Positions 5,324 through 40,555 of a stretch of DNA of 64,000 nt are shown here, piece by piece. Positions within the stretch are counted from its first letter, which is position 1. Each line of letters opens with the position of its first letter. The notes beneath the pieces are model-generated. The model saw nothing but the letters and a program-made list of their open reading frames with translations. It was not told where the DNA came from and searched no databases. The DNA is from Candidatus Iainarchaeum sp. (GTDB taxonomy: Archaea; Iainarchaeota; Iainarchaeia; Iainarchaeales; UBA10191), in the NCBI GenBank assembly GCA_030649735.1, contig JAUSFL010000035.1:5044-69043 (forward strand). The letters are read 5' to 3'. A program made the position numbers and the translations under genes.

Positions 5324-5326
5324 GGC

Positions 5327-7480: not shown

Positions 7481-7492
7481 GGAGTTGATTGA

Positions 7493-7843: not shown

Positions 7844-7950
7844 TGCCAAAGTACGGCAATGCTTTGATATTCATCAAAAGGCAACTTTTGATGAAAAATC
7901 TGCTTTTTTTCCTTCTTTTTTAAAAACTCCAATTGCGTTAGAATAATCAT

Positions 7951-8742: not shown

Positions 8743-8754
8743 GGTTGGATTAAG

Positions 8755-9540: not shown

Positions 9541-9549
9541 GGTGGGAGA

Positions 9550-9864: not shown

Positions 9865-10854
9865 TTACTTTCTTTTGTAAATTTCTTCAATGATTTCCTC
9901 AACTGGCGGATCAGAGATTGTGATGTCTTCGATTCCCTCAAGCTTTGCGACTTCTTTCAAGAATTCCTTGATTGGCTTTTTCTTGCAGTCAACCTCTAGC
10001 TTGAATCCCAAGTCGTCCTTGGATTTTCTCAAGACCTTGCAGTTCTTGATTTTAAAATCCTGCACTTTGTCCTCAAAAAGCACGCTCACGACTTTCTTGT
10101 TCAAGTAATTCCTTTTCAGCTCAGTGACTGAATTGTCATAAATTGTCTTTCCATGGTTGATTATCATTATTCTCTTGCAAAGGCTTTCAATGTCTGAAAC
10201 ATCATGCGATGTCAAAAAAATTGTTGTTCCTTCCTCTCGGTTCAATCTTTTGATTTCTTCGCGAAACTTGCGTTTGGCAATCAAGTCAAGGCCAATTGTC
10301 GGCTCGTCCAAGAACAATATTTCCGGATTGTGCAATAGCGATGCAATCAATTCGCATTTCATTCTTTGCCCCAAGCTCAATTTTCTCACTGGCTGGTTGA
10401 CGAATTCTTTCGCTTCCATTCTTTCAATCAATTCATCCCGACGCTTTTCAAATTGGGCTTTTGGGAGCTCGTAAATTTTTCCCATGAGCTCGAAAGAGTC
10501 CATTGCGGGCAAGTGCATCCATAACTGGCTTTTCTGTCCGAACACTGTCCCAATCTTGAAAGCGAGCTTTTGTCTTTGCTTCCACGGGTCAAAGCCAGCC
10601 ACGCTTGCGCTTCCGCCGGATGGAGTTAAAATTCCAGTGAGCATTTTAATCGTTGTTGACTTTCCAGCGCCATTAGGCCCGATGAACGCGAGCATTTCCC
10701 CGCCTTCAACTTCAAAGCTTACTTTGTTGACTGCGTGAATTTTTTTCTTTTCAGAACTCACAAGCGCTTTTAACGCGCCCGCAAGGCCCGGCTTTCTTTC
10801 ACTAAACTCAAAGTCTTTGGAAAGTCCGCTGACTGTGATGATTGGCTCGCTCAT
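9865..10854 (-). CDS. ABC transporter ATP-binding protein
   Basis: GPNGAGKST, LSLGQ, LFLDEPT, TSH. Confidence 0.95.
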   Translation of the reverse strand: MSEPIITVSGLSKDFEFSERKPGLAGALKALVSSEKKKIHAVNKVSFEVEGGEMLAFIGPNGAGKSTTIKMLTGILTPSGGSASVAGFDPWKQRQKLAFKIGTVFGQKSQLWMHLPAMDSFELMGKIYELPKAQFEKRRDELIERMEAKEFVNQPVRKLSLGQRMKCELIASLLHNPEILFLDEPTIGLDLIAKRKFREEIKRLNREEGTTIFLTSHDVSDIESLCKRIMIINHGKTIYDNSVTELKRNYLNKKVVSVLFEDKVQDFKIKNCKVLRKSKDDLGFKLEVDCKKKPIKEFLKEVAKLEGIEDITISDPPVEEIIEEIYKRK

Positions 10855-10922
10855 GCTAGAATCACGCGCTGGCAGAATTTAAAATTGCTGTTTTAAAAGA
10901 ACTGAAAAGCCCAAAACCTGAT

Positions 10923-11483
10923 TTAATTCTTGACTTCTTTGATTTTTTCAAAAAGCCTTTCGAATTTTATGTAGCCTGATTTTTTGTTGAAGTGGCCAGC
11001 GCCTTTAACTATGATAAATTCCGCGCCGAGCTTTTCAGCCAATTCCTTGCCTTTTGCCAGTGGGACAAAAGGGTCGTTGTCTGAATGGAACACTACAAAT
11101 TTTCTGCAGTTCTCTCGGATTTTCTTCCAATCGAACTCCCGCTCTGCAAAGCTGGCATTCAATTTATCCAATTCAGAGTCTCCCAATTTTCCAATAAATC
11201 CAGAAATCAGGAATGCTGCCTGGATTTGCTTCGGGCTTTGCTCTAAAAGAGAAAGTATGAAAGCGCAGCCAATGCTGTGCCCGATGATTATTGAGTTTTC
11301 ATTCAATTCTCTTTCAAAGTCTTCAAAGCGTTTCATCCAGTTTTCCAGGCTTTGGCCTTCAGGCGTTGGAAATTCAGGCACAAAAACCTTGTTGTGCTCT
11401 TTAGTCAGCTGTGCCTTAAGCCAGGGAAACCAGTTTTCTTGAGGGTTTCCGAAAGCCCCGTGAATTATGAAAAAATTAGTCAT
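10923..11483 (-). CDS. RBBP9/YdeN family alpha/beta serine hydrolase
   Basis: IIHG, NWFPWL, GHSIG, SDNDPFV, GAGHF. Confidence 0.9.
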   Translation of the reverse strand: MTNFFIIHGAFGNPQENWFPWLKAQLTKEHNKVFVPEFPTPEGQSLENWMKRFEDFERELNENSIIIGHSIGCAFILSLLEQSPKQIQAAFLISGFIGKLGDSELDKLNASFAEREFDWKKIRENCRKFVVFHSDNDPFVPLAKGKELAEKLGAEFIIVKGAGHFNKKSGYIKFERLFEKIKEVKN

Positions 11484-11496
11484 AAGCTAAATTAGG

Positions 11497-11820
11497 TTAG
11501 TAAAGTATCTTATCCACTTCTTTTTCGATTAAAGAATCAAGGATTGCCGTGGTTTCAAAATCAAGGCTGCTTTTCCTGCGCACGAATTCTTTTTCTTCCC
11601 CGCGCACTACTCCATCAATGTATCTTCCGATAGAATTCCAGGGAACTCCGGGAAAACTCATTTTCTCGGCTTTTTTGCGCGAATTGAAAACCACTGTTGC
11701 CCTGCCTTGGCCTGAAAGGCTTTTCAATTGCTTTTCAAGCGGCATTTTGACTGTTTCCGCGGGCTTTTCCAAATCCTGCCTTGGAGCATCAGTCCTTTTC
11801 AAAAAATCAAGCATTCCCAT
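11497..11820 (-). CDS. Hypothetical protein
   Basis: Clean ATG ORF with TATA-like element upstream; co-oriented with neighbours. Confidence 0.55.
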   Translation of the reverse strand: MGMLDFLKRTDAPRQDLEKPAETVKMPLEKQLKSLSGQGRATVVFNSRKKAEKMSFPGVPWNSIGRYIDGVVRGEEKEFVRRKSSLDFETTAILDSLIEKEVDKILY

Positions 11821-26976: not shown

Positions 26977-28905
26977 ATGACCGTGGATTATTCTGGCTTT
27001 TTTCCTTATTCTGAATTCAAGCCTTACCAGCGCGAAGTCTTGGACTTTACTGGTCACGTGGTTTCAAACAGCCAGATTGGATTGATTGAAGCTTACTGCG
27101 GCTTTGGAAAGACAATTTCAACTTTTGCGCCAGCGCTCGCGCTTGGAAAAAAGATTTTGCTTTTGACTCCGACTTATTCTGCAAGGAATGCGGCAGTTGC
27201 TGAAGTATTGCGCATGAACAAGGTTAATGGAAAAGAATTGGTTGTTGCAGACTTGCGGGGCAAGGCAGTCATGTGCGCGCGCTTTCAAAAAGACTCTTTC
27301 TCCCACGAGGCCTGCGAACGTTCAAAAAACGACCAGACCTGCTCTTACTTCAGGAAAACTTTCTCAAAGCCTAAAGAGCTTTCAAAAAACGCGTTTTCCT
27401 TCAATCAAGAGCTTGTTGAAAGAATGCTTTCAAAGCCAGAGATTTTCTTTAATGGAAAATCAACTGATTCAGAGCCCTTGCTTTTTGAAAAAGTGCAAAA
27501 AGTCGCCGGCAAGAGAATGCTTTGCTCTTACGAGTTGGTGAAAAACCTTGTGAGCGAGGCAGACGTTGTGATTTTGGATTATTTTTGGGTTTTTACGGGA
27601 ATTTTTTCGATACTGGCAAAACTAATCGGAACTGAAGACTTTGTGCTTTTGATTGATGAGGCAGATTTGCTGGTTGACAGGATTTACAACAACTATCACA
27701 CGCAGTTAAGCCTTCAGGCATTGAAAATCCTTCACTCGCAGGCAAAGCACGGCTTGAAAGCCGGAATTCTGATGGAAACCGACATTTTGTTTTTGGAAGA
27801 ATTCATTCGCTATTCAGAACAGTACATTACAAACTCGCGAAGCGAGCTAGAGCTTTCACCCAATGAAATAATCTCTTTTTTTGAAACGCGCTTTAAGGAA
27901 ACCGCAAAAAGGCAGGGCTTGAAGGGAGAAATTTCCCTCGCGCAAATTACTAAAAACCTTGAAACAATAATTGAATCATTGAAGGGATTGGCAGAGTCTG
28001 AAAAAGCCACTGCCCGGCCTGATTTGTTCCTAAAACAGCTTGAAGCAATAAAGGATTCTGGCGAGTTTTTGGCTTTCATTCCTTCAGCAAAAGACAAGAT
28101 TGTGATAAAGCCTTTTGAAATCAACGCAATCACTTTAACGAATGGAAAAACATTGAAGGACACTTTGCTTGAATTCCAAAGCGTTATCTTGTTTTCTGCA
28201 ACAATTGGCGATCCAGACCTTTTCCTTAAAGAATTCGGCCTGAAAAGAACTGAAGTGAATATCTTACGCATTAAGGAAATGCCGCACAAAAAACTCTTGT
28301 TTGTAGTAGACACTGAATTGAACACTTTGTACACTTCACGCGAGCAAAGCTTTCCAGCATACTTGGAAAAAATCAGGATGCTGATGAAAATTGACAATTC
28401 ATTGCTTGTCAGCTTTTGCAACCAAACAGAGCTTGAAAAAGCCCTTGCTGAAATTCCAGAACTGCAGGACGCCTCAAAACTTTCAGTCCTCGATCCTGAA
28501 AAATCCTATGCATTGAACATTCGCACAAGAAGCGCCCGTTCCACAAACAAAGCCCGCCATTTGAGGAATTGCCTGATTGTTGGGCTTCCGCTTCCAGACT
28601 ATTCTGACTTTTACCTCCAAAAGCGCAAGGATTACCTTGAAAAAAAGTACAGTAAACTCGAGGCTGGAAAAATAATCAATGGAAAAGCAGTTGACAATGC
28701 AGTGCAATTCATTGGAAGAATCACAAGGGACTTGAAAAGCCCGCGGGCGATAATCCTTGCAGACTCGCGCTATTACTCAGACTATTTCCTAAAGCATTAT
28801 TACTTTCAGTCCTTGCCTGCGTACTTTAAGCCTTTCCTGCGAATTGCAGCATACAATTCAGACTTGAAGCAAATGCTTGAAGAATTCTGGGAAAAGCCTG
28901 CTTGA
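26977..28905 (+). CDS. XPD/Rad3/DinG-like Fe-S helicase, divergent
   Basis: Q motif PYQ, GFGKT, four Cys, IDEAD, SAT, GLP.P, QFIGRITR...LADSRY. Start set at ATG 26977. Confidence 0.8.
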   Translation: MTVDYSGFFPYSEFKPYQREVLDFTGHVVSNSQIGLIEAYCGFGKTISTFAPALALGKKILLLTPTYSARNAAVAEVLRMNKVNGKELVVADLRGKAVMCARFQKDSFSHEACERSKNDQTCSYFRKTFSKPKELSKNAFSFNQELVERMLSKPEIFFNGKSTDSEPLLFEKVQKVAGKRMLCSYELVKNLVSEADVVILDYFWVFTGIFSILAKLIGTEDFVLLIDEADLLVDRIYNNYHTQLSLQALKILHSQAKHGLKAGILMETDILFLEEFIRYSEQYITNSRSELELSPNEIISFFETRFKETAKRQGLKGEISLAQITKNLETIIESLKGLAESEKATARPDLFLKQLEAIKDSGEFLAFIPSAKDKIVIKPFEINAITLTNGKTLKDTLLEFQSVILFSATIGDPDLFLKEFGLKRTEVNILRIKEMPHKKLLFVVDTELNTLYTSREQSFPAYLEKIRMLMKIDNSLLVSFCNQTELEKALAEIPELQDASKLSVLDPEKSYALNIRTRSARSTNKARHLRNCLIVGLPLPDYSDFYLQKRKDYLEKKYSKLEAGKIINGKAVDNAVQFIGRITRDLKSPRAIILADSRYYSDYFLKHYYFQSLPAYFKPFLRIAAYNSDLKQMLEEFWEKPA

Positions 28906-28946
28906 AGGATTTTTATACTGTTTTTTTCCCAAACTCTAGGTTGGGT

Positions 28947-29687
28947 ATGGACTTAACTATTGCAAAGCAGGTTTTGGACAATGCTTTCAGGCAAAAGCAA
29001 TTGTGCATGGTTATTGGAAACTGCAAGGCAGAATACTGGGGTAGAGCGGCTTCAAAGCTTTCTGAAGGCGACAGGATGCTTTTGATTAAAGGAGACGGTT
29101 CTTTTGCAATTCACCAGAACAAGCTCTTGCGGCCAGTGAATTATATGATGAGCGCTTCAATGAAGACTTCGCAAGAAAATGGCCAGCTTGTTGTGCTTGC
29201 TGAAAAGCTTAAGCCGAAAGAAAGCCTGAAGGTTTTTTTCAGCAGCATTGACTTTTGCCAGTGCTTTGAAATGCACGACATTCACGACGTGCGATTGTTT
29301 GGAAGCGAAAAGCAATTGCAAGAGCTTTTGGGAGATGACCTTTCATTCATTGAGCCCGGCCTTACGCCACTCAAAAGAGAAGCGCATTTTGAGCAGGGCT
29401 TTGCAGACATTATTGCAGAAGACAGCAAAGGCAGGATTTGCCTGATTGAAGTGAAACGCCGCAAGGCATCGCTTGATGCTGTCTCACAATTGCACCGTTA
29501 CCAGCAAAAAATGAAAAATTTGAAGAACAAGGAAGTGCGTGCCTTGTTGCTTGCGCCTGAAATTACTGAGAACGCAAAGCTTTTGGCGGACAATTATGGG
29601 ATTGAATTCTTCAAACTGGATTTTGAAATCTCCAATCCTTCCGCAAAAATAAAAGGCATTGAAAAAAAGCAAACAACGCTTGTTTGA
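28947..29687 (+). CDS. nucS: Endonuclease NucS (EndoMS)
   Basis: Y.GRA.S.L, K.DGS..IH, P.NY, SEKQL, D...EVKR, QL.RY. Confidence 0.93.
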   Translation: MDLTIAKQVLDNAFRQKQLCMVIGNCKAEYWGRAASKLSEGDRMLLIKGDGSFAIHQNKLLRPVNYMMSASMKTSQENGQLVVLAEKLKPKESLKVFFSSIDFCQCFEMHDIHDVRLFGSEKQLQELLGDDLSFIEPGLTPLKREAHFEQGFADIIAEDSKGRICLIEVKRRKASLDAVSQLHRYQQKMKNLKNKEVRALLLAPEITENAKLLADNYGIEFFKLDFEISNPSAKIKGIEKKQTTLV

Positions 29688-29694
29688 GTCAGAA

Positions 29695-30072
29695 TCAGCT
29701 TGCTGTCAATTGCCTTACTTTTTTCAGAATTTCTTTTGCAGTGAATGGCTTTGCAATGTAATGGCCGTCCAGTTCCTTGCAGTATGCCTTGTCTTTTTCC
29801 TTGCAATGACTTTCCTTGTTTGTGAAAAGCACTGCCTTTATTTTCTCGAGCTTTGGGTCCTTGTGCATTTCGTAAAGAGTTCTCCAGCCAGACATTACTG
29901 GCATTGCGGCATCCAGAATAATCAGTTTCGGCTTCAATCCGTCATGCAATTTTTGCAGGCATTCAAGCCCATTGCTTGCTTCAACAACTTTAAAATCTCC
30001 TTTTTCCAAGGCTGCCTTCACTGCCTGCTTTACTTTGGAATCGTCGTCAACAATCAGGATTGTCTTTTTCAT
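29695..30072 (-). CDS. Single-domain response regulator receiver
   Basis: ILIVDDD, ILD..MP.MSG, T, KPF. Confidence 0.9.
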   Translation of the reverse strand: MKKTILIVDDDSKVKQAVKAALEKGDFKVVEASNGLECLQKLHDGLKPKLIILDAAMPVMSGWRTLYEMHKDPKLEKIKAVLFTNKESHCKEKDKAYCKELDGHYIAKPFTAKEILKKVRQLTAS

Positions 30073-30171
30073 AAAACTCTAAAGAATTAGAATTTTTAAA
30101 GTTTAAAAAGTTGCTGGTTTATTCGCCAGCAAATATTTCAAAAAATGTTCTTTTTTGAAAATCTTCAAATT

Positions 30172-31455
30172 TTAATTCGAAAACTTTTCCAAAAGCTTTT
30201 TTCCAGCGTAAACCGCTTTCTTGCCAAGTTCTTCCTCAATGCGCAAGAGCTGGTTGTATTTTGAGGTTCTTTCAGAACGGCAAGGAGCCCCGCTTTTTAA
30301 CTGCCCGCTGCTTGTTCCAACCGCAAAGTCTGCAATGAAAGCGTCTTCAGAGTCTCCAGACCTATGGCTCACTATCGCGTTGAATCCTGCTTCTTGCGTT
30401 ATTTTGATTGCTTTTAAAGTCTCGCTCACTGTTCCAATCTGGTTTAATTTTATGAGCGTTGCATTGCATGCTGAAAGCTTTATTGCCCTTAAAATTCTTT
30501 CAGGGCTTGTCACAAGCAAGTCGTCGCCGATTATTTGCGTTGTTTTTCCCTTGCCTTTGGTCAAGGCGCAAAACCCTTGCCAGTCGTCTTCAGCCAAGCC
30601 GTCTTCAACGCTGATTAGCTTAAAGCGGTCTATAAAGTCTTCAATAACTTCGACAAATTGGATGTTTGAGTATTCTTTTCCTTCAAAAGAGTATTTTTCG
30701 TTCTTGAAAAAGCTTGAAGCCGCGCAGTCCAGCGCAAGCCGTACTTGTTTTTCATAGCCTGTTTCCTTCAACGCAAGCTGAATGAGCTTTAAAGCATCTT
30801 CAGTACGGGAAATGTTTGGCGTAAAGCCGCCTTCATCACCGACATTGATTGCTGTTTTGCCGAATTTGTCCTTTATGATTTGCTTTAATGTCTGGTAGAC
30901 TTCAACATTCATTTGCAATGCTTCAGTAAAGCTTGCAGCTCCGACTGGAGCAATCATGAATTCTTGGACTGCCAATCCATTGCCTGCGTGCTGTCCGCCA
31001 TTGATTACATTCATTAAAGGGACCGGCAAAAGCAATTCCTTGTTTTCTGAAAGCTTTCCCACATACTCGAATGCCGGAAGCCCTGCATTCAATGCCGCTG
31101 CCTTGCAGGCCGCAATGCTCACGGATAATATTGCGTTTGCTCCCAAGCGCGACTTGTTGGTTGTGTTGTCAAGTTCAATCATTATTTTGTCAATCAATTC
31201 CTGCTTTGAGCAGTCCTGGCCTTTAAGCTTTGGCGCAATTATTTCATTAACGTTATTCACTGCGTCCTTGACGCCTTTTCCCAAGAATGCCTTTCCGCCA
31301 TCCCGCAATTCCATTGCCTCATGGACTCCAGTTGAAGCGCCTGAAGGCACTATTGCAATTCCAGTTCCGGCCTGTGTTTCAACTTCGGCTTCAACTGTCG
31401 GGTTGCCTCTAGAGTCTAAAACCATTCTAGCCTTAACATTCAATATTTTTGCCAT
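30172..31455 (-). CDS. eno: Enolase
   Basis: DSRGNPTVE, VPSGASTG, GDEGGF, K.NQIGT, SHRSG, RSER. Confidence 0.98.
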   Translation of the reverse strand: MAKILNVKARMVLDSRGNPTVEAEVETQAGTGIAIVPSGASTGVHEAMELRDGGKAFLGKGVKDAVNNVNEIIAPKLKGQDCSKQELIDKIMIELDNTTNKSRLGANAILSVSIAACKAAALNAGLPAFEYVGKLSENKELLLPVPLMNVINGGQHAGNGLAVQEFMIAPVGAASFTEALQMNVEVYQTLKQIIKDKFGKTAINVGDEGGFTPNISRTEDALKLIQLALKETGYEKQVRLALDCAASSFFKNEKYSFEGKEYSNIQFVEVIEDFIDRFKLISVEDGLAEDDWQGFCALTKGKGKTTQIIGDDLLVTSPERILRAIKLSACNATLIKLNQIGTVSETLKAIKITQEAGFNAIVSHRSGDSEDAFIADFAVGTSSGQLKSGAPCRSERTSKYNQLLRIEEELGKKAVYAGKKLLEKFSN

Positions 31456-31521: not shown

Positions 31522-32223
31522 TTAAGAGCCCGCAATCCTGCTTAAAGCCCCCAGTTTAGTGCCTTCAAACAGTTTTTCCTTCATTTTGCTGAAAACAAAC
31601 TTTTCAAGCAAGGCATAATCCTGCTTTGGAAACTCGCCTTTAATGAGCTTTTCAATGTCTCCCCAAGTCCGGTCAATGTAAGTCAAATTCTTGATTTCTT
31701 CATCCTTGCACTCTCCAAGGCATGAATGAGAACTCCTTATTAACGCAAAGTCTATTTTTGAAAACCTGAAAGTGTAATAGCCTTCAGTCCACAAGTCATG
31801 GCCTACAAAAACCATTTCTTCAGGCGTGTAGCCAAATTTTTCTTGAATTGCTTGAATTGTCACTTGCTTGAAGTATTCGTCCTTGAATTCCTTGTTTTCA
31901 GTTATTTTTTGCTCATACAATTTCCTGTCAATTTCTTCCCTTCCGGCCAGGTATTCCCTGTTCACGAAAGAAATCCTGTCTTCTGGAAAAAACTCCCGCA
32001 ATTTGTATTGTTCAATTCTTTTCAATGCCTCGTCTGCTGAATATCCAGTGGCTGCAAAAAACCTGAAGCGCGGGAATATTTCCTCGACTTTCTTCAAATT
32101 TTTCAGAATTCCCGAAACATTCTTCATTTTCACGTCCTTGTCAATGTTTCCCGGGATCAGCACGTCTTCAAACCCAAAAATAAGGCATTTTTTTGCCAAA
32201 TCAGAATCTTTCTTAATTTTCAT
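31522..32223 (-). CDS. Hypothetical protein with degenerate HAD-like fold
   Basis: LIFGFEDVL, ATG, K, MVFVGHDLWTE resemble HAD motifs I-IV without the first catalytic Asp. Confidence 0.55.
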   Translation of the reverse strand: MKIKKDSDLAKKCLIFGFEDVLIPGNIDKDVKMKNVSGILKNLKKVEEIFPRFRFFAATGYSADEALKRIEQYKLREFFPEDRISFVNREYLAGREEIDRKLYEQKITENKEFKDEYFKQVTIQAIQEKFGYTPEEMVFVGHDLWTEGYYTFRFSKIDFALIRSSHSCLGECKDEEIKNLTYIDRTWGDIEKLIKGEFPKQDYALLEKFVFSKMKEKLFEGTKLGALSRIAGS

Positions 32224-32250: not shown

Positions 32251-32351
32251 TCAATAAAAACCTTTGTTCGCCAACTGTCCAGCCAGTTGGCATCTGGGAA
32301 TGTGCGCTATCTTGCGATAGCGCGGTAATGCTTAATTCAATAAAAACCTTT
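32251..32351. repeat. Structured element copy 1 (32266-32336) flanked by 15-bp direct repeats TCAATAAAAACCTTT
   Basis: Direct repeats at 32251-32265 and 32337-32351; hairpins GCCAACTG/CAGTTGGC and GCGCTATC/GATAGCGC inside. Confidence 0.8.
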
Positions 32352-32392
32352 CCGCACTCTACTTGTAAATAAGTTCTAGAATGAGATCTTTT

Positions 32393-32466
32393 GGGGCTGT
32401 AGTCTAGCTTGGTTAGGACCTATGCTTTGGGAGCATAAAACCACGGTTCAAATCCGTGCAGCCCCA
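32393..32466 (+). tRNA. tRNA-Pro (UGG)
   Basis: Acceptor GGGGCTG/CAGCCCC, D-loop with GG, anticodon arm TATGC-TTTGGGA-GCATA, T arm CACGG-TTCAAAT-CCGTG; no encoded CCA. Confidence 0.95.
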
Positions 32467-32579
32467 AACCGCCCAGCCGGTTTATGTCTGGGCATGTGCG
32501 CTATCTAAAGACAGCGCGGTAATGCTTTCGATCGCGCGTGCCAAAGTATGTGCGCTATTTTTGATAGTGCGGTAATACT
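32466..32579. repeat. Structured element copies 2 and 3 (ATGTGCGCTAT...GAYAGYGCGGTAATRCT)
   Basis: Copy 2 at 32466-32527 is full length; copy 3 at 32548-32579 has only the second hairpin. Confidence 0.8.
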
Positions 32580-32597
32580 ATTCTAATTTTTTGACTG

Positions 32598-34169
32598 TTA
32601 GTTTTCGGCAAGCTTGCCGAATTTCCAAAAGTCAAATTCTGAAGGAAAGCAGGAATTTTTTCCGGAAAATCCTTCACTGCGCTGTTTTTTCTCCAAAACA
32701 AGGCTTTTCATGATTTCCTCTTTTTCACTGGCGCTTTTTCCATTAAGGTCTTTTCCAAATTCCTTGAAAATAATGCAATTGCTTGCCTGGCCTGTGGGAT
32801 TGACCCTGATTTTCCTGCATTTTTTCGGGTCGCATTCAAAGTCTATCGAGTATTGCGGCAAAATTCCAAAAACCACTTTGTTTTCCATTATTTCAAAATA
32901 CTCGCTTTTTGGGTTGTCGCCCTTGAAAAAAACAGGCCTGATTTGCCCGAATTCTTTCCTGACTGCCTCGACTGCCTTTCTGACTGGCACGTATTCTTTC
33001 TTGACGAATTGCGCGTCTTTTTCAAAACCGCCTGGAATTAGCTCCAAAAACCGTACGGCAATCTTGCAGTTTCTATTGCGTTCAGACAATTCCTTTATGA
33101 AATTAATTATTTTTGGAATTTCCTGCAAGTTTTGCTTTGAGAGCACAAAATGAATTTTGACTGTCTCAAAGAATTCTGCGGCCTTTTCTATTGACTGCAA
33201 AACTTGCGGCAGGAAATCAAAGCCGGTGATTTGCGCAAATTTTTCCCTGTCTAAAGTGTCCAGGCTTATGTTGGCGCGGCTGATTCCGCAGTTTTGCAAT
33301 GCTTCAGCATTTCTAAAAAGCGTTGTCCCGTTTGTTGAAATGCACTGTTCTGAAAACCCGAGCTCTTTTGCTTTTTTTGTGAGCTGTAAAAAACCTTGAT
33401 TTATTGTGGGCTCGCCGCCAGTCCATCTGACTCGCTTGATTCCGGAATTTTTTGCAGCCTGCAGTATTTCAATGATTTCTTCATTGCTTATTTTTGGCAT
33501 TCTTTCCTGGTTGTTTTCCCTCTTGCAGTAGTTGCAGTTCAAATTGCATTCCCTTAAGGAAATTTCAAGCATGAAATCATTGATTTTTCCGATTTCTTCA
33601 ACGACTTTCTTGAATTCTTCATTCTTTGTCCCATCAAGCTCAAAGCCCGCTTTTTGCTTTAATGGCTCAATGTGCAAGTCGTGCATTGGACGCACGTGCT
33701 CTTCAAGCCGTTTGCGCACTTTCTCTTGCGAAATATTCCTTTCAATGCAGTCTCTTTTAATGCGCCTTGCAAATCTTTCAGCCTCGGGCGCGTTGACAAA
33801 AAACTTCAAGTCCATTTCCTTGTTCAATTCATTGTCGTGCAGTGCGAGAATTCCCTCAAAAATTATTATCTCGGCGGAATGGATCTTTTCAAAGCCAGTC
33901 CTTCCGTTCTCGTACTCGTAAATTGGGGCCCTAAAATCCCTGCTGTTTTTCAGGCTGGCAATGCAGTTTTTGATTAATTCCCAGTCAAAGGATTCCGGGC
34001 AGTCAAAATTCTTTTCGCCATTGAATTCTGGAATTTCAGAATGGCTTTTGTAAAACCTGTCCTGGCTTAAAATCAGCGCGTTCTTTCCAAGATTCTCGGC
34101 GGCCTTTCTCGCAATTGTTGTTTTTCCAGAAGCAGAACCCCCGGCAATCCCAACAACCAGCACCATCAA
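32598..34169 (-). CDS. Fusion of uridine kinase (N-terminal) and MoaA-like radical SAM/Twitch domain (C-terminal)
   Basis: GIAGGSASGKTT, QD.FY, NFD.P, EGIL, RR..RD..ER; then CNLNCNYC, TGGEP, STNG, NISLDTL, RFLEL, CDPKKC-x13-C. Confidence 0.9.
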   Translation of the reverse strand: MMVLVVGIAGGSASGKTTIARKAAENLGKNALILSQDRFYKSHSEIPEFNGEKNFDCPESFDWELIKNCIASLKNSRDFRAPIYEYENGRTGFEKIHSAEIIIFEGILALHDNELNKEMDLKFFVNAPEAERFARRIKRDCIERNISQEKVRKRLEEHVRPMHDLHIEPLKQKAGFELDGTKNEEFKKVVEEIGKINDFMLEISLRECNLNCNYCKRENNQERMPKISNEEIIEILQAAKNSGIKRVRWTGGEPTINQGFLQLTKKAKELGFSEQCISTNGTTLFRNAEALQNCGISRANISLDTLDREKFAQITGFDFLPQVLQSIEKAAEFFETVKIHFVLSKQNLQEIPKIINFIKELSERNRNCKIAVRFLELIPGGFEKDAQFVKKEYVPVRKAVEAVRKEFGQIRPVFFKGDNPKSEYFEIMENKVVFGILPQYSIDFECDPKKCRKIRVNPTGQASNCIIFKEFGKDLNGKSASEKEEIMKSLVLEKKQRSEGFSGKNSCFPSEFDFWKFGKLAEN

Positions 34170-34187
34170 ACCACCTTGGCAGTTTTC

Positions 34188-34268
34188 CTATTTTTTCCAG
34201 TTTTTCAGCAGAAAATCCCAAATTTTGTCGTCTGCCGCGTGAACCAAATTATTGAGCAGTTTTTTCAA
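34188..34268 (-). CDS. Small 26-aa peptide MKKLLNNLVHAADDKIWDFLLKNWKK
   Basis: TTG start 5 nt after AAGGTGA SD; stop 18 nt before the fusion gene; not in ORF track. Confidence 0.5.
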   Translation of the reverse strand: MKKLLNNLVHAADDKIWDFLLKNWKK

Positions 34269-34288
34269 GCCGCTCACCTTTGGAATTG

Positions 34289-34343
34289 ATAGTGTTTTAT
34301 TTTTGTTAAGCAATCCTGCAAAAAAACACCCTATAGTGTTTTA
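34289..34343. promoter_or_regulatory. Putative operator: AAAACAC-N6-GTGTTTT inverted repeat plus a second ATAGTGTTTTA copy
   Basis: Inverted repeat 34323-34342; ATAGTGTTTTA at 34289 and 34333; lies between divergent genes. Confidence 0.55.
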
Positions 34344-34367
34344 ATTTCTTGCGTTCACATTGGGATT

Positions 34368-35210
34368 GTGCTTTCAAAGGAATTGCAGGAAAAGATACTC
34401 AAGCTTGTGAAAAAAGAGCCTTGCCTGGTGCAGGACATTTCTCGGCACATTGGAAAAAGCTGGGTTGCGACTGAAGGCTATGTTGAAAGAATCTCGAAAG
34501 ACACTGGCTTGATTAGGACAAAGGCATTCCGCAAGGGAACCAAAGGCGCTGTCAAGGTTGTTTACTGGAATTATTCTGAAAGCGTCCAGGATGACGAGGT
34601 CAAGGAAAGGCTTTTTCAGAGAATAAAGCTGTTTTCAAGCAAGAAAGAATTTGATCCCTTGGAAATCTTCCAGTTTGCCAAGGACAAACGCTCTAATGCG
34701 ACTGTGGAGTTCAAGAGCAAAAGGCTTTCAAGCAAGCACCATAAAAACTTCCTTTCATTCCTGAAAAAGGCGGATTCTGAATTATTGTGCTTTTCAGGAA
34801 ACATTTCCTGGATTAGCATCAAGGAAGGAAACGAAAGCGCCTTAAGAATAATTGAGGAATTCCTGAAAAAGCGCGGAGTCTTGAAAATACTCTGCAGGAT
34901 TGACATTGCCTCAATGAAAAACATCCGCTTGCTCGAGCCCTTGATGAAAAAATTTCCAGGCCAGGTTGAAGTAAGGCATTCAAGCCAGCCAGTGCGCGGC
35001 TTCATAATGGATTCCAAAATTGCGCGCTTCAAGGACGAGAAAAAAATTTCAGACTTCAAGGAAGGCGAATTGTCAGAAGACCTGTACTTGTTTTATGAAT
35101 TGTTTGACATTGACTGGGTCGAGTGGTGCAAGAATGTTTTCTGGTACTTGTTCCGGAATTCAATAGGGCTTCAGGAACGGGTCAAAGTGCTTGACAGGCT
35201 GGTTTTCTAG
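34368..35210 (+). CDS. Putative transcriptional regulator (N-terminal winged HTH, C-terminal TrmB/PLD-like effector domain)
   Basis: LVQDISRHIGKSWVATEGYVERI HTH plus wing; C-terminal alpha/beta domain ending VRGFIMD...W...FW. Confidence 0.6.
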   Translation: MLSKELQEKILKLVKKEPCLVQDISRHIGKSWVATEGYVERISKDTGLIRTKAFRKGTKGAVKVVYWNYSESVQDDEVKERLFQRIKLFSSKKEFDPLEIFQFAKDKRSNATVEFKSKRLSSKHHKNFLSFLKKADSELLCFSGNISWISIKEGNESALRIIEEFLKKRGVLKILCRIDIASMKNIRLLEPLMKKFPGQVEVRHSSQPVRGFIMDSKIARFKDEKKISDFKEGELSEDLYLFYELFDIDWVEWCKNVFWYLFRNSIGLQERVKVLDRLVF

Positions 35211-35687: not shown

Positions 35688-36293
35688 ATGGTTCCGGCAA
35701 AGATTTTTTTTGTAAAAGGCGTGGGAGTCCACAAGGAAAGGCTTGCTTCTTTCGAGGCAGCCTTAAGGGATGCCGGAATTGAAAAATGCAATTTGGTTTA
35801 TGTTTCAAGCATTTTTCCGCCAAACTGCAAAGTAGTCTCTAAAGAGCAGGGCTTGGCTGAATTAAGGCCTGGGCAAATCACTTTTTGCGTAATGGCGCGC
35901 AATGAAGCCAATGAGCCAAACAGGCTGATGGCTGCCGCAATCGGCCTTGCATTGCCTACAGACAACAACCATTACGGCTACTTGTCAGAGCATCATTCTT
36001 TTGGGGAAAAAGCAGTGATTGCGGGCGAGTATGCTGAAGACTTGGCAGCCTCAATGCTTGCAACCACTTTAGGAGTGCCTTTTGACACTAACGAAGCATG
36101 GAGCGAGAGGGAAAAGACCTACAAGTCAAGCGGCCACATTTTCAAGACTTGCAACACCTGCCAGTCTGCAGAAGGCAACAAGGACGGCTTGTGGACTACA
36201 GTCATTGCCGCCGCAGTGTTTATTATTGATGCTGAAAGCATCAAAAAGTACGAGCCTTCACAGCAGAGCCAAGGCCCTGTTTGCCCGCTGTAA
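35688..36293 (+). CDS. pdaD: Pyruvoyl-dependent arginine decarboxylase
   Basis: [23 protein letters not shown] cleavage site, [16 protein letters not shown]. Confidence 0.93.
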
Positions 36294-36369
36294 ATAGCTG
36301 GCTTTTTTAATTTTTTTCTACAGAAAGCTTTTTTAACCTCAAATCCTTAATTTTTCAAGTGGTTTTTTT

Positions 36370-36519
36370 ATGGCAGAGAGTAATGGATCTATTGGGTTCT
36401 TCCTGATTGGAATGGCTTTAGGGCTTTACTTGCCCAGCTTTCAAGCGCCAGTCGAATTCCTGAACGTTTACTTGGGATTATTGCTCATAGTGATTGCGGT
36501 AATAATTTTCGTGAAATAA
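36370..36519 (+). CDS. Small two-TM membrane protein (49 aa)
   Basis: MAESNGSIGFFLIGMALGLYLPSFQAPVEFLNVYLGLLLIVIAVIIFVK; TATA-like site and GTGG upstream; not in ORF track. Confidence 0.55.
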   Translation: MAESNGSIGFFLIGMALGLYLPSFQAPVEFLNVYLGLLLIVIAVIIFVK

Positions 36520-36544
36520 TGTTGCTTTTTAGCAATACATTCAT

Positions 36545-37819
36545 TTAGTTTTTATTATTTGTAGCCGCAAGGATTTCTCTGGAAATTATCTCATCCTCGT
36601 GGCTTCGAGTTTTTTTTGCGACAAAAATACTGATTGAGCTCAAAATTATCGAGAAAGTGATCACTGCGTAAGTGATGCTGGCGATTTGATCTGAGTGAGG
36701 AACGCCCTCAATTACAAGGATTTGCGCAATTGCAGCGGCAGCCAAACCGCGTGCAAATACTGAGCCAACAATTTTCTGCTCAAAGGAAGTGAAGTCTTTT
36801 GCAAAAATCATGGACAAACGCCTTGCAAACATCAGAATAATTGCAATAATGAGGCCTAATGCCAAAATGAAATAGTCTGAAAGATTAATCAAGATTCCAA
36901 TGTAAACAAAAAAGAAAGTCTTCAGGAAGAATGAAATCTGCGCGTAAAAGAACTCTTCATTTTGCGAGACTGCAGCAACTCCGTAATCTCCATTCACTGC
37001 CTTTTGCCTGTCTATTTTCGGGTTTACAATCTCTGAAAATAAGGAAGTCAGCTGTTTTGAATTGCGCAAAACCAGCCCCAAGCACAAGCCAGCAATGACG
37101 CCATTGCCGTTCAATGATTCAGCAATCACAAAGACTAAAATAAGGTATGCAATTGTAATGAGGTAATGCTTTGATTCCTTGAAAACCTTTTGAACCAAGA
37201 AAATCCAGAAAATTCCTGCAACAATTCCAATTGCTGCAGCGACTGAAAATAAAATCAAAAGATTGCTTGCCAAGACCTGAAAGTTGAAAGCGTTGATTTT
37301 GACTGCTTCAACAACAGCCAATGCCATAACTATGCACAATACATCAGTGAAAGCAGATTCTAAAGCCAAAACAGAGTATGCTTTTCCTTGAATGTTCAAC
37401 TGCTTGAGCAATGGAATCACAAACGCAGAGGAAATTTCGCCCAAAATCACTCCAGCAAGCAATGCGGTGAAAAAATCAAAGCCCGCGAGGACCAAAACTA
37501 TTGTGATTAAAGCCATGGAAAGTAAAAAATTGAACAAGGTGATTTGCAGGCTTTTCAAGACGCCTTTTGCGAGTGAAGATAGGTCAATGCTGAATGCGCC
37601 GTCAAAAAGCAGGAAGAGCAATGCAAATGTCGTGAACAATGGCGCAATTCCTGCAAAAGAGGCAGGATTTGCGTAACCCAATACAAAAGGTCCTAGAATA
37701 AATCCCAAAATTATCAGGAACAAAATGTCTGGAATTCCGGTTTTTTTGAAAAGGAATTCTGAAAAAGCCCCAAAGAATAAAATTAGGCTTATTCCAAACA
37801 ATATCATTAGAACTTCCAT
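36545..37819 (-). CDS. Cation:proton antiporter (CPA1/NhaP-like)
   Basis: IPD.L.LI..G.ILGP, LFDG, LESAFTD, FFVYIG, RGLAAA. Start set at ATG 37819. Confidence 0.9.
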   Translation of the reverse strand: MEVLMILFGISLILFFGAFSEFLFKKTGIPDILFLIILGFILGPFVLGYANPASFAGIAPLFTTFALLFLLFDGAFSIDLSSLAKGVLKSLQITLFNFLLSMALITIVLVLAGFDFFTALLAGVILGEISSAFVIPLLKQLNIQGKAYSVLALESAFTDVLCIVMALAVVEAVKINAFNFQVLASNLLILFSVAAAIGIVAGIFWIFLVQKVFKESKHYLITIAYLILVFVIAESLNGNGVIAGLCLGLVLRNSKQLTSLFSEIVNPKIDRQKAVNGDYGVAAVSQNEEFFYAQISFFLKTFFFVYIGILINLSDYFILALGLIIAIILMFARRLSMIFAKDFTSFEQKIVGSVFARGLAAAAIAQILVIEGVPHSDQIASITYAVITFSIILSSISIFVAKKTRSHEDEIISREILAATNNKN

Positions 37820-37915
37820 GAAAACCCGTTTTATTGACGGATTTAAAGTTTTTAAGGCTAACATTGCCTTGAAACCAAATAGAGTTTTATAAAAGTAAAG
37901 CTTTTCTTTAGTACA

Positions 37916-40555
37916 ATGATTGAAAGCAGGTTTTTTTCCCAAGGCTTGAGCCATTCGGAGGCAAAAAAGCGTCTTGGAACTTTTGGGCTTAACGAAGTGC
38001 AAGAGGTTTCCCAAGTAAGCCCCCTGCGGATTCTTGCAAGGCAAATAAAAGGAAACTTTCTCATTTACTTGCTTTTTGCCGCAATGATTGTCTCAGCATT
38101 AATTGGGGAAGTAATAACATCAATAGTGATTTTGGCAGTCATTTTTGCTTCTTCAATAATTGGCTTTGTGCAGGAATTCAAGGCAGAAACCGCAATCAAG
38201 GCCTTAAAGAAAATGCTAGTCCCAATCTCACTGGTTGTCAGGGACGGAAAGATTTGTGAAGTTGAAACAAAGGAAATTGTTCCCGGAGACATTATTGTAT
38301 TGAGAACTGGGGAAAAAATCCCCGCAGATTGTGAAATACTTGAAGAAAAAGACCTTTTAATAAATGAATCAATATTGACTGGCGAGTCAAAAGAAATCAA
38401 GAAAACACCTGTTTTGGAAGGCATTAAATCCAGCGAGCAAAATAAGCTTTTTGCAGGAAGCCTGATTACCAGCGGAAAGTGCATTGCAAGGGCACTGCAT
38501 ACTGGAATGAACACTGAATTTGGAAAAATCGCAAGAATGATTTCAACCGCAGAAAAAGCGCATCCTTTGCAGGAAAAATTGAACCTGATTTCGAAACAGG
38601 CTTCAATAATCGCGCTGGTGATGGCTGCGTTGACTTTTGCATTGCTTTTGGCGCAAAACTCGGGCGAAACTGACAAGCAATTCTTGATTCACGCAATGAT
38701 TGTTGCAATAGCAATCGCTGTTTCAGCATTTCCTGAAGGCCTGCCGATTGTTTTGATTACTACCTTGGCTTTAGGCGCTTTCAAGATGGCAAAAAAGAAC
38801 GCGATAGTGAACAGGATTTCAATCATTGAAACATTGGGGGAAACTACTGTCATTTGCAGCGATAAGACTGGGACAATAACCAAGGGAGAAATGACAGTCA
38901 GAGAAGTTTTTTCAGACAATGAACTAATTAAGGTAAGCGGAATTGGCTTCGAGGCTGAAGGAAAATTCACAATAAATGGAAAGAATGCGGATTTGGAGGG
39001 AATTGTTTTTGAGCAATTCTTCAAAACTGCTTTGTTCTGCAATGACGCAAGAATTGAAAGAAAAGGGACAGACAATGAGTATAAAATAATTGGGAGCGCT
39101 ACTGAAGGCGCACTGCTCATAATGGCTGCAAAGGCGCAAAAGTTTATTGAAGACTTGAAGGCTAAGCGAATTGAGGAATTGCCTTTTAATTCTGAAAGGA
39201 AAATAATGAGCGTCTTATGTGCTGAAGGCAATGAAAGTTTTGTTTACGCCAAAGGCGCTCCAGAAATCATTTTAGGAAATTGCGGGTTTTACTCTTCAAA
39301 AGACGGTATTTTAAAGTTTGGTGAAGAAGAAAGAGAAAAAGTCCTTGCTGCAATGCATGAATTTTCTGCAAAAAAGTATCGCGTTTTGGCATTGGCTTTC
39401 AAAGAACAAAAAAGAGGCGTGCTGGAAATTTCCGAAAAAAACATGGTTTTTGCTGGCTTAGTTGCAATGGAAGACCCGCCAAGGGAAGAGGTAAAAGCTG
39501 CTTTGGAAACCTGCAAAATTGCAGGCATTAATGTAAAAATGATCACTGGAGACAATAAAGAAACTGCCTTGGAGATTGGAAAAGAAATAGGCCTTTTTGG
39601 AGATGTATTATCTGGAGAAGAAATGGACAATCTAACTGATGAAGAACTCTCAAAAATTGTCGGCGGGGTTTCATTTTTTGTGAGAGTGAGGCCAGAACAT
39701 AAGCTCAAAATCATCAAGGCATTGAAAACTAATGGGGAAGTTGTTGCAATGACTGGTGACGGAGTAAATGATGCTCCGGCCTTGAAAGAAGCGCATATAG
39801 GAATTGCAATGGGAAAGAATGGGACTGATGTTTCAAGGGAGGCCGCGGACATTGTTTTAAAGGACGACAATTTTGCAACAATTGTAAAGGCAATTTCTGA
39901 AGGTCGGACAATCTTTCTCAACATTAGAAAGTTTGTTTCATACCAGCTTTCATGCAATTTTGCAGAATTATTGATAATATTTTTGGGAATTCTTTTAGGT
40001 CTGCCTCTGCCCTTGCTTGCTTTACAGATTTTATTCATGAATTTAGTTACTGATGACCTGCCTGCTCTGACATTGGGGTTTAATCCTGCTTCAAGGGACA
40101 CAATGCGCTCAAAGCCAAGGAAGAACTCATCAATTTTAACTCCCCAATTAATTGCATTTTTCCTGATTACTGGCGTAATAATGGTCATTGGCTCATTAGG
40201 TGTCTTTTATTATGCATTGAATGTATTAAAACTTGATTTAACAACAGCAAGGACAATGACCTTGGCAACATTGATTCTTTTGGAAATAGCAAATGCATTC
40301 AACTTCAGGTCTTTCAGAAGGTTGTTTTCCAAAACAAATATTCTTTCAAACAAGTCATTGGTTTACGCGTCAATAATCTCGATTATCGCTACACTCTTAG
40401 TTTTTTACACGCCATTAAATCAGGTTTTTGGGACAATTGGCCTAAGCATTGGGCAGTGGATTTTGCCAATATTTGTTTCGGTTGGCATTGTTTTGATTGT
40501 TGACTTAATAAAGGCATTGAACAGGAAGAAAAAGTTCTTCCCAGAATTGCTTTAG
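37916..40555 (+). CDS. P-type cation (Ca2+-like, type IIA) transporting ATPase
   Basis: TGES, PEGL, DKTGT, KGAPE, MITGD, GDGVNDAP, NLVTD. Confidence 0.95.
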   Translation: MIESRFFSQGLSHSEAKKRLGTFGLNEVQEVSQVSPLRILARQIKGNFLIYLLFAAMIVSALIGEVITSIVILAVIFASSIIGFVQEFKAETAIKALKKMLVPISLVVRDGKICEVETKEIVPGDIIVLRTGEKIPADCEILEEKDLLINESILTGESKEIKKTPVLEGIKSSEQNKLFAGSLITSGKCIARALHTGMNTEFGKIARMISTAEKAHPLQEKLNLISKQASIIALVMAALTFALLLAQNSGETDKQFLIHAMIVAIAIAVSAFPEGLPIVLITTLALGAFKMAKKNAIVNRISIIETLGETTVICSDKTGTITKGEMTVREVFSDNELIKVSGIGFEAEGKFTINGKNADLEGIVFEQFFKTALFCNDARIERKGTDNEYKIIGSATEGALLIMAAKAQKFIEDLKAKRIEELPFNSERKIMSVLCAEGNESFVYAKGAPEIILGNCGFYSSKDGILKFGEEEREKVLAAMHEFSAKKYRVLALAFKEQKRGVLEISEKNMVFAGLVAMEDPPREEVKAALETCKIAGINVKMITGDNKETALEIGKEIGLFGDVLSGEEMDNLTDEELSKIVGGVSFFVRVRPEHKLKIIKALKTNGEVVAMTGDGVNDAPALKEAHIGIAMGKNGTDVSREAADIVLKDDNFATIVKAISEGRTIFLNIRKFVSYQLSCNFAELLIIFLGILLGLPLPLLALQILFMNLVTDDLPALTLGFNPASRDTMRSKPRKNSSILTPQLIAFFLITGVIMVIGSLGVFYYALNVLKLDLTTARTMTLATLILLEIANAFNFRSFRRLFSKTNILSNKSLVYASIISIIATLLVFYTPLNQVFGTIGLSIGQWILPIFVSVGIVLIVDLIKALNRKKKFFPELL

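Follow-up and report, generated by a model that had tools for sequence, protein, structure and literature searches.

What might a protein do that carries, in one polypeptide, a uridine kinase (Udk)-type domain and a relative of MoaA, the GTP 3',8-cyclase of the molybdenum cofactor (Moco) pathway? Such a protein is encoded on the minus strand at positions 32598-34169 of a 64,000-nucleotide stretch of DNA from Candidatus Iainarchaeum sp., a groundwater archaeon (GenBank assembly GCA_030649735.1, contig JAUSFL010000035.1, positions 5,044 to 69,043), which we refer to in full as the window. We favour, with a likelihood somewhat above even, the reading that the fused gene encodes a bifunctional enzyme in which a nucleoside kinase is coupled to a nucleotide-modifying radical S-adenosylmethionine (SAM) domain; within that reading, the chance that the modified base is a pyrimidine is about even. 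The broader finding is an unnamed clade of MoaA-like proteins, of which the Udk fusion is one lineage-restricted form. MoaA-like genes in Moco-free organisms are usually labelled 'cyclic pyranopterin phosphate synthase' or 'radical SAM protein', and the locus indicates that at least one large branch of them has another role.

Architecture of the fused protein

The gene is a single open reading frame (ORF) of 523 amino acids (aa) counted from a TTG codon. The true start is likely the ATG at 34166 (second codon), which would give a protein of 522 aa, and the public copy of the fused protein, P0001, has that length. The gene and its parts are as follows, all on the minus strand.

32598-34169, minus: whole fused gene; stop codon at 32598-32600
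33585-34169, minus: Udk-type nucleoside kinase domain with its C-terminal helix (aa 1-195)
34119-34145, minus: P-loop GGSASGKTT of the kinase half (aa 9-17)
33075-33584, minus: radical SAM core (aa 196-365)
33564-33566, minus: E202, replacing R17 of MoaA in the alignment to MoaA structures
33525-33548, minus: cluster cysteines C208-x3-C212-x2-C215 of the radical SAM core
32670-33074, minus: Twitch / Mob_synth_C-like domain (aa 366-500)
32775-32834, minus: auxiliary-cluster cysteines C446, C451 and C465, placed by alignments
32616-32657, minus: clade-specific C-terminal motif NSCFPSEFDFWKFG (aa 505-518)

Pfam places PRK/Udk at aa 5-175 (99.6 bits against a cutoff of 22) and Radical_SAM at aa 206-358 (93.9 bits), with Mob_synth_C at aa 371-490 scoring 31.6 bits, under its cutoff of 37.4. 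The top NCBIfam models are moaA (166.9 bits, cutoff 284.05) and udk NF004018 (162.1 bits, cutoff 180). Besides its CxxxCxxC motif the radical SAM half contains TGGEP (250-254), STNG (278-281), NISLD (300-304), the auxiliary motif C446-DPKK-C451-x13-C465, LEIS (with E202) and KIH (with H340), and its C-terminus, ending in FWKFGKLAEN, lacks the terminal GG of MoaA. The original prediction, made from the DNA letters alone, had described each of these motifs where we find it.

The AlphaFold2 model (38-row alignment) has a mean predicted local distance difference test (pLDDT) score of 87.3 and a predicted template modelling (pTM) score of 0.68, and in Foldseek its C-terminal half superposes on the whole Staphylococcus aureus MoaA chain with a template modelling (TM) score of 0.76 on the target. 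According to the model and the alignments, the last kinase helix (aa 183-195) leads straight into the first radical SAM strand with no residual intergenic sequence; the predicted architecture is an end-to-start joining of two complete proteins. The ORF, the Pfam domains and the predicted folds thus agree that a complete Udk is joined in frame to a radical SAM enzyme, as had been proposed.

The fusion is genuine and confined to one lineage

Logan contigs from four groundwater runs were placed on 32300-34500; two of the runs, X3 (pieces of at most 280 bases) and X5 (fragments), were not used. A 19,653-base contig of run X1, which probably derives from the sample underlying the assembly, spans 32439-34500, including the domain junction and the ORF up to its start, with 10 differences. 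The 2,530-base contig of run X2, which belongs to another study, covers 32524-33954 with no gaps and 92 differences (~94% identity), extending more than 300 bases to either side of the junction at ~33585. The codon tally for X2 covers the 33 differences listed inside the ORF (126 more, all runs together, lie outside the listing): 25 are at third codon positions, 24 are synonymous taken singly and 31 fall in the radical SAM half. Because this contig is gapless and its changes are mostly synonymous, we conclude that a related strain has the same fused frame, under purifying selection. The fusion is genuine and not an assembly chimera, a worry that the original prediction had raised about itself. 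That an assembly error or a frameshift has joined two adjacent genes is now hardly conceivable: the fused form is known just from one species-level lineage, but contigs from both runs cross the junction, that of the independent study without an indel, and the kinase helix runs into the radical SAM N-terminus with nothing left over between them.

The fusion is also rare. A word-indexed search covered 5.8 billion proteins, and of the best 120 of its 330 matches the window's own protein alone combines PF00485 with PF04055; among the best 150 of 22,463 matches in an exhaustive phmmer search of 1.84 billion cluster representatives, only P0001 aligns over both domains. The phmmer library merges proteins above 50% identity and could hide close fused relatives, which the word-indexed search would have revealed. 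Forty related genomes contain neither the fusion nor a close ortholog of the radical SAM half, and at clade level (E <= 1e-40) just 2 of the 215 genomes of the phylum that were searched give a match, namely the window's own and G147. Among the sequences searched, the Udk fusion is restricted to one species-level lineage; the suggested search for it elsewhere yielded the related-strain contig, but no fused protein beyond this lineage among the best matches listed. GC content is flat at the locus (0.39-0.44 across 26-41 kb) and so gives no sign of recent transfer.

The kinase half is an apparently intact nucleoside kinase

The fold of the kinase half matches uridine-cytidine kinases, including human UCK2 and the Thermus thermophilus enzyme, with TM scores of 0.80-0.87 in Foldseek. 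It is 35-36% identical in the Foldseek alignment to T. thermophilus Udk (3ASY/3ASZ; TM 0.82-0.87), which differs from the window protein by lacking the radical SAM fusion. The P-loop, the Asp of SQDRFY (QDxFY), the NFD motif and the LID arginines are all retained, and G10, S12, G15, K16, D37, Y40, N54, D56, R132, R139, D140 and R144 are invariant in a 14-row kinase alignment. By these features the domain belongs to the uridine/cytidine kinase family as an intact P-loop nucleoside kinase. Among stand-alone proteins its nearest relative is P0124, at 49% identity. In its own genome the fused Udk is the sole strong PRK/Udk match, at 102.5 bits compared with 37.6 for a divergent kinase on contig 44; the genome also encodes nucleoside diphosphate kinase (NDK), cytidylate kinase and orotidine monophosphate decarboxylase, and a cytidylate-kinase-like gene lies in the window at ~61772-62077 on the minus strand.

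The radical SAM half differs from MoaA

By homology MoaA is the closest known system. The S. aureus enzyme (PDB 1TV7/1TV8/2FB3) has the same fold over the whole domain and is the top PDB sequence match, at 125.9 bits with the clade profile. Both proteins have the CxxxCxxC motif and a three-Cys auxiliary cluster motif, although the first auxiliary pair is Cx4C here and Cx2C in MoaA. Equivalents of MoaA R268 and of K69, R71, N124, K163 and R192 are kept, the latter five, which we take to be triphosphate ligands in the MoaA-GTP structure, as R246, R248, N300, K338 and R373. The window protein differs in having Glu for R17 and Lys for R266, in its H-x-Q..FW[RK]FG tail and in the kinase fusion.

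The replacement at R17 is the most telling of these changes. The available text of PMC9026282 reports three strictly conserved arginines of S. aureus MoaA, R17, R266 and R268, as contacts of the guanine base, and states that only Lys is tolerated at R17, other substitutions abolishing 3',8-cyclase activity. In our alignment to 1TV7 and 2FB2 (the R17/266/268A mutant of MoaA), E202, K453 and R455 stand at these three positions. Scores against the NCBIfam MoaA models all fall below their cutoffs (TIGR02666, 166.9 against 284.05; TIGR02668, 155.1 against 325.25; NF001199, 148.1 against 231). Phylogeny gives the same picture: in a FastTree phylogeny of 112 domain sequences, rooted on three SPASM radical SAM proteins and with Shimodaira-Hasegawa-like support (71 of the 93 GG-type rows were left out at random for speed), canonical MoaA is one clade (34 rows, support 99), FW[RK]FG-type proteins form several deeper branches, and the window domain lies outside the MoaA clade, sister to the stand-alone protein P0121 (support 89) within a group of ten (support 96).

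Moco genes are likewise missing. None was found within the window, and the window's own genome (1.28 Mb, 92.7% complete, 2.3% contaminated) gave no match to MoaC (PF01967), MoCF_biosynth (PF00994; MogA/MoaB/MoeA), MoaE (PF02391) or Molybdopterin oxidoreductase (PF00384), in a search in which control genomes gave the expected Moco-family matches.

Since Glu occupies the R17 position, and with sub-cutoff scores and a place outside the MoaA clade, the radical SAM half is, as judged from these comparisons, not the GTP 3',8-cyclase MoaA. The original prediction had reached the same view, and its report of no moaC or other molybdopterin genes extends from the window to the genome. One of its arguments falls away: it had treated the absent C-terminal GG as diagnostic, but this proves nothing because GG is kept in bacterial and eukaryotic MoaA and not in archaeal MoaA, according to the same available text (PMC9026282). 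The alternative that this is nevertheless a true MoaA, serving a molybdenum or tungsten cofactor and fused to Udk, can point to that archaeal precedent and to MoaA being the best NCBIfam, PDB and fold match; against E202, the scores, the tree and a genome in which no MoaC, MoaE, MogA-type domain or molybdoenzyme was found, it is already largely refuted and retains a minimal probability.

An unnamed clade of MoaA-like proteins

The closest stand-alone relatives of the radical SAM half, P0002-P0011, are proteins of 325-355 aa with 34-47% identity and 213-333 bits, in a protein search in which true MoaA proteins score ~140 bits. Among the loci and proteins collected, a hidden Markov model (HMM) built from the window domain and these ten relatives gives members 270-540 bits, with the Cx4C-x13-C auxiliary motif and the FW[RK]FG tail (clade consensus H-x-Q-[SK]-x-Y-x-F-W-R-F-G), and canonical MoaA, with Cx2C and a terminal GG, at most 196 bits; graded intermediate proteins fill the interval between them, at 200-260 bits. 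P0001 reaches 497.9 bits and has its Cx4C at 445 and its FWKFG at 513.

The clade has no specific NCBIfam or Pfam model, and its cluster names in the Atlas are just the generic 'radical SAM'. It occurs chiefly in genomes of DPANN archaea and of the candidate phyla radiation (CPR). Named archaeal members belong to Micrarchaeia/Micrarchaeota, Aenigmatarchaeota and Pacearchaeota, and bacterial members to Saccharibacteria and Berkelbacteria, with others in metagenome-assembled genomes labelled Alphaproteobacteria UBA7488, Bacteroidales and Endomicrobium. MoaC was found in none of nine other clade-bearing genomes, whose completeness is not given. Taken together, the profile, tree and gene content indicate that the clade is a separate, Moco-independent MoaA-like lineage without a name. 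Neither it nor a Udk-radical SAM fusion is described in the literature searched, which covers few subscription journals. DPANN and CPR symbionts make up much of groundwater microbial diversity.

One branch of the tree, comprising P0123, P0128 and L015:181-1173(+) (support 99), keeps the FWRFG tail without the R17-type Arg and the auxiliary cysteines, and may be a single-cluster derivative.

Fusion partners and gene neighbours of the clade

We annotated 17 distinct loci with a clade gene: the window, 8 genomic loci, 7 metagenomic loci after removal of duplicates (2 borderline by score) and G147. At 9 of the 17, a nucleoside or nucleotide kinase, phosphorylase or phosphohydrolase is fused or adjacent. 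The partners by locus, and four fused proteins scoring 249-321 bits on the clade HMM, are:

Window: Udk, fused
L017, L018 and G147: PHP near the clade gene
L019 and L021: HD and NDK-like near the clade gene
L030: NDK-HD fusion and NUDIX near the clade gene
L023: PNP_UDP_1 fragment near the clade gene
L029: His_Phos_1 near the clade gene
L019, in addition: a GNAT-NUDIX protein and two nucleoside 'Gate' proteins
L021, in addition: a carbamoyltransferase
L018 and L027: archaeal-type SAM synthetase
L014 and L033: nucleotidyltransferases
L022 and L033: methyltransferases
L013, L017, L022, L033 and G147: additional radical SAM genes
P0125: SAM synthetase fused to radical SAM
P0127: NUDIX fused to radical SAM
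P0151: dual-specificity-phosphatase-like (DSPc) domain fused to radical SAM
P0144: radical SAM fused to NDK and HD

Neighbours of a nucleotide-enzyme type were not seen at L013, L015, L016 and L025. Against the PDB, the HD and NDK-like partners match just structural-genomics HD hydrolases and ordinary NDKs, with weak E-values. From the domain assignments, what links the partners is the formation and cleavage of phosphate esters of nucleotides, along with SAM supply. The repeated fusions, to nucleoside kinase, NDK plus HD, NUDIX, phosphatase and SAM synthetase, serve as a Rosetta stone toward nucleotide chemistry, and the partners elsewhere in the clade strongly suggest a nucleotide substrate. 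To this extent the original prediction of a pyrimidine nucleotide holds; its pyrimidine part rests solely on the Udk fusion.

A further alternative arises from the same neighbourhoods, namely a role linked to translation, either in nucleoside modification of RNA or tRNA or in the production or handling of an aminoacyl-adenylate-like compound aimed at class II aminoacyl-tRNA synthetases (aaRS). At 6 of the 17 loci the clade gene has a class II aaRS gene no more than a few genes away, a count for which no background rate was computed: seryl-tRNA synthetase (SerRS) at L014, L018 (L018/L026) and L027, prolyl-tRNA synthetase at G147 (L190, G147:C30), threonyl-tRNA synthetase at L013 and an unassigned class II enzyme at L022. 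In addition, a tRNA-Pro gene adjoins the window gene, the Saccharibacteria genome G044 has two SerRS genes, one beside the cluster, and the albomycin pathway, as set out in the available text of PMC9092360, uses radical SAM enzymes, a carbamoyltransferase, a methyltransferase and a SerRS-like gene to build a SerRS inhibitor. On the other side, these tiny genomes are dense in housekeeping genes; Udk, NDK, NUDIX and PNP, being enzymes of free nucleosides and nucleotides, point to small molecules and not to RNA; and of the 3 genomes tested, 2 (G042 and G147) have no second copy of the adjacent aaRS. We regard a translation-linked role as extremely unlikely. Adjacent aaRS genes were also considered as self-resistance copies, an idea ruled out in those two genomes, where they are the only copies.

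Three side observations concern related loci. In two archaeal genomes (L017:3013-5230 and L190:2298-4321) a second radical SAM gene, closer to MoaA in type, stands in tandem behind the clade gene, and a PHP phosphatase is encoded close by; the second gene of L017 (L017b) has Cx2C and a tail motif ..RWG, and the tandem genes may represent a two-radical-SAM pathway. The Aenigmatarchaeota clade gene L014:6980-8105(+) appears as frames of 273 aa and 106 aa, a split that may not be real because the first frame ends in a run of X (unknown or masked bases). Genome G021, of the window's order, encodes in L003 (G021:C11:861-4739) a 500-aa MoaA-like protein (ORF 1480-2982(+)) with a C-terminal P-loop AAA_18 kinase-type domain, followed by an ORF of the CYTH/CyaB family (2969-3514(+); 101 bits, cutoff 57.95). 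It scores 191 bits on moaA_archaeal (cutoff 325) and 117 on the clade HMM, which marks a different lineage, and likewise occurs without MoaC; its domain content indicates an independent radical SAM-kinase fusion in reverse domain order.

A proposed kinase-coupled mechanism and its weight

In the kinase-coupled reading, the kinase half would convert a nucleoside to its 5'-monophosphate, the most likely substrates being uridine, cytidine or a closely similar compound. The radical SAM half would bind this product directly, or as the di- or triphosphate made by the cell's Cmk and NDK, with the base placed at the open iron of the auxiliary [4Fe-4S] cluster. SAM would then be cleaved at the first cluster, and the 5'-deoxyadenosyl radical would abstract a ribose hydrogen to give a modified nucleotide. 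The hand-over of the kinase product to the radical SAM domain, the pyrimidine nature of the base, the choice of hydrogen and the identity and purpose of the product are inferences. Recent work on MoaA offers a model for two of the steps: according to the available text of PMC12625886 (PNAS 2025), for N1 to coordinate to the auxiliary cluster, O6 of guanine or hypoxanthine is both required and sufficient, and SAM cleavage is set off by the C-terminal tail, which detects the bound substrate. In the same way, uracil might present its N3-H/O4 face to the auxiliary cluster, as guanine does N1/O6, and the FW[RK]FG tail could act as a substrate sensor. Loss of the R17-type Arg in the subclade of the window protein and P0121 fits a changed substrate or chemistry. 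As a single polypeptide, the fused protein is a convenient entry to substrate and product, and what it leads to might be a salvage step specific to the DPANN and CPR symbionts, a so far undescribed modification of nucleotides or a nucleoside analogue of natural origin.

We also put forward, tentatively and as a possibility well short of even, a wider scheme in which the clade would add a third type to the nucleotide-acting radical SAM enzymes, after MoaA and viperin. Its auxiliary iron would hold the lactam face of the base (in the window subclade, pyrimidine N3/O4) during an undescribed ribose-radical reaction, for instance a dehydration, exchange of a ring atom or closure to a cyclonucleotide. 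A nucleoside analogue would be assembled and set free by the kinase, NDK, HD, NUDIX, PHP and carbamoyltransferase partners, and would serve the genome-reduced DPANN and CPR symbionts as a weapon against hosts, competitors or viruses, with class II aaRS as a possible target.

Several observations weigh against the kinase-coupled reading. The R17-type Arg and the K/R pair, guanine contacts in MoaA, persist in the majority of the clade, whose ancestral substrate may therefore be a purine. The kinase half falls just short of its NCBIfam cutoffs, that of NF004018 given above and also that of TIGR00235 (148 against 220.3), and carries Gly88 where 3ASY has Tyr93 and the 3W8R mutant has His, at what we take to be the base-selecting position; this bears on nucleoside preference, with Gly also present in P0124 and His in 7 of the 14 aligned sequences. 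The window copy has 7 unique substitutions at columns otherwise invariant in an 11-row clade alignment: R to E at the R17 position, I to F, N to H in KIN, H to C, Q to P, Y to F and R to K in the tail. The genes flanking the fusion match no ORF of 19 clade loci by BLASTP or phmmer, and no phosphatase or tailoring gene is demonstrably coupled to it in the window. Biochemical data on clade members were not found in the literature searched, and the lineage-restricted fusion could be a neutral joining of a salvage kinase with an unrelated neighbour.

The last point is the core of an alternative in which the fusion is opportunistic. Udk would be a salvage kinase and the radical SAM half would act on something other than its product (a different metabolite, or GTP or ITP as for MoaA), and loss of a stop codon would have joined them with no hand-over of substrate between them. 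Consistent with this, the protein with both domains is only the window's own among the best matches and is absent from the 40 relatives, the fused Udk is the genome's sole strong Udk match, R268 as well as R17 is retained in most of the clade, and P0121, the closest stand-alone relative, has no kinase. We consider it a serious alternative, because the fusion occurs in one lineage and guanine-type contacts persist in most of the clade, yet an unlikely one: fusion or linkage of the clade to nucleotide kinases and phosphohydrolases has arisen many times independently, purifying selection acts on the fused gene, and the window/P0121 subclade has lost the R17-type Arg, as would be expected if guanine-type chemistry had changed.

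The 7 substitutions, among them R to E and N to H, and the lack of an ortholog in close relatives would also suit a decaying radical SAM half in a protein of which only the kinase works. Several of the odd residues, however, are common to stand-alone P0121 (LVVS, Cys for His, D-F and FWKFG), so that they mark a subclade and not decay. The six cluster cysteines and the SAM-binding motifs are intact, the AlphaFold2 model is confident throughout the domain, and the X2 differences concentrated in this half are mostly synonymous. A relic is therefore very unlikely, and the kinase-coupled reading remains the one we prefer.

Likeness to viperins and nucleoside-antibiotic modules

By the logic of their parts, the closest systems are kinase-linked viperins and small nucleoside-antibiotic modules. 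Viperins (pVip, CMPK2-viperin) likewise couple a kinase to a nucleotide-acting radical SAM enzyme, and the PADLOC pVip-kinase model has the same order, with an N-terminal kinase and a C-terminal radical SAM domain. Viperin is a single-cluster enzyme without an auxiliary Fe-S cluster. The window protein differs in having that cluster, a MoaA-type C-terminal domain and no defence context, and its kinase is a nucleoside kinase of the Udk family, not a nucleoside monophosphate kinase of the CMPK2 type. In the available text of a preprint (10.1101/2023.09.13.557418), MoaA is a distant homolog of viperin, kinases lie near 12% of bacterial and 5% of archaeal viperins, and viperins are fused to kinases and to a triphosphatase/cyclase domain; together with the PADLOC model this bears out the viperin precedent for kinase-radical SAM pairing that had been invoked for the window gene.

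A viperin-like antiviral role, in which the kinase would raise the supply of a pyrimidine nucleoside triphosphate (NTP) and the radical SAM half would turn it into a chain-terminating analogue blocking viral polymerases, draws on this shared architecture, and one locus, L013, adjoins an Imm5-like gene and an Eco57I-type methylase. The pVip models, however, match just the shared core (aa 206-362, profile positions 11-166 of 262), and the NCBIfam viperin model NF038283 gives 48.7 against a cutoff of 180. PADLOC recognised no defence system among the window neighbours tested, its matches near the fusion being weak and partial (NucS as PDC-S11, 33.7 bits; a response regulator as PD-T4-6, 24.3 bits) in a housekeeping context. 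Moreover, none of 79 viral-contig loci has a clade member, all being partial radical SAM core matches, and the HD, NUDIX and PHP partners would destroy an NTP product. With the auxiliary cluster and the MoaA-type C-terminal domain also against it, the antiviral role that had been suggested for this gene lacks specific support and is improbable.

The nucleoside-antibiotic modules resemble the clade in gene content. The thmABC, AbmM/AbmG and OxsB/OxsA (oxetanocin) sets parallel its combination of a radical SAM gene with kinase and HD, NUDIX or PHP genes, a likeness by descriptions and not by sequence, and clade gene sets sometimes add a carbamoyltransferase or methyltransferase, as such modules do. 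The available text of PMC12691670 describes thmABC (4'-thiothymidine) as a radical SAM enzyme, a nucleoside kinase and an NTPase, and an Fe-S cluster of albomycin AbmM as the sulfur donor. OxsB differs in being listed as cobalamin-dependent, and the clade's DPANN and CPR hosts are not known antibiotic producers.

Surroundings of the fused gene

The genes nearest to the fusion are the following.

32392-32467, plus: tRNA-Pro(TGG), convergent with the 3' end of the fused gene
31522-32223, minus: HAD-fold protein of 233 aa, of a DPANN-restricted family with 25 homologs and no Pfam match
34368-35210, plus: divergent gene for a protein of 280 aa with a candidate N-terminal helix-turn-helix (HTH_5, E = 0.14, 12.5 bits)

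The tRNA that the original prediction placed next to the gene is thus identified as tRNA-Pro(TGG). Of the divergent regulator also described there, the divergent gene is present, but its identity as a regulator has just the faint HTH_5 hint, and no homolog of it was found beside other clade genes. The small upstream ORF, with candidate frames of 41-61 aa, has no support of any kind and is dropped.

The 233-aa neighbour is modelled by AlphaFold2 with a pLDDT of 93.1, and its top Foldseek matches are all HAD phosphatases (E ~4e-4, TM 0.4-0.6). Its first motif is atypical, F-E-D-V-L and not DxDxT. A 94%-identical copy, P0266, lies on a contig of 2,530 bases, as long as the X2 contig that bridges the fusion. 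Because it is conserved in relatives without the fusion, this neighbour is no evidence for a local pathway. Further out, at 28902-31455 and 35688-40555, the window holds ordinary archaeal housekeeping genes, encoding NucS endonuclease, a lone response-regulator receiver, enolase, pyruvoyl-dependent arginine decarboxylase (PvlArgDC), a probable cation antiporter-like membrane protein and a P-type ATPase.

A second cluster with a kinase and radical SAM genes, L181 (G000:C44:49000-61000), is present in the same genome. Its ORFs, at 4726-5409(-), 5444-6787(+), 6809-8161(+), 8184-9398(+), 9346-10335(+), 10277-10912(-) and 10905-11660(-), encode a divergent PRK-family kinase, two SPASM radical SAM proteins (447 and 450 aa), a class III aminotransferase, an inositol-monophosphatase-like protein, a CDP-alcohol phosphatidyltransferase and a PEMT-like methyltransferase, a content from which the cluster may be a head-group or cyclitol pathway.

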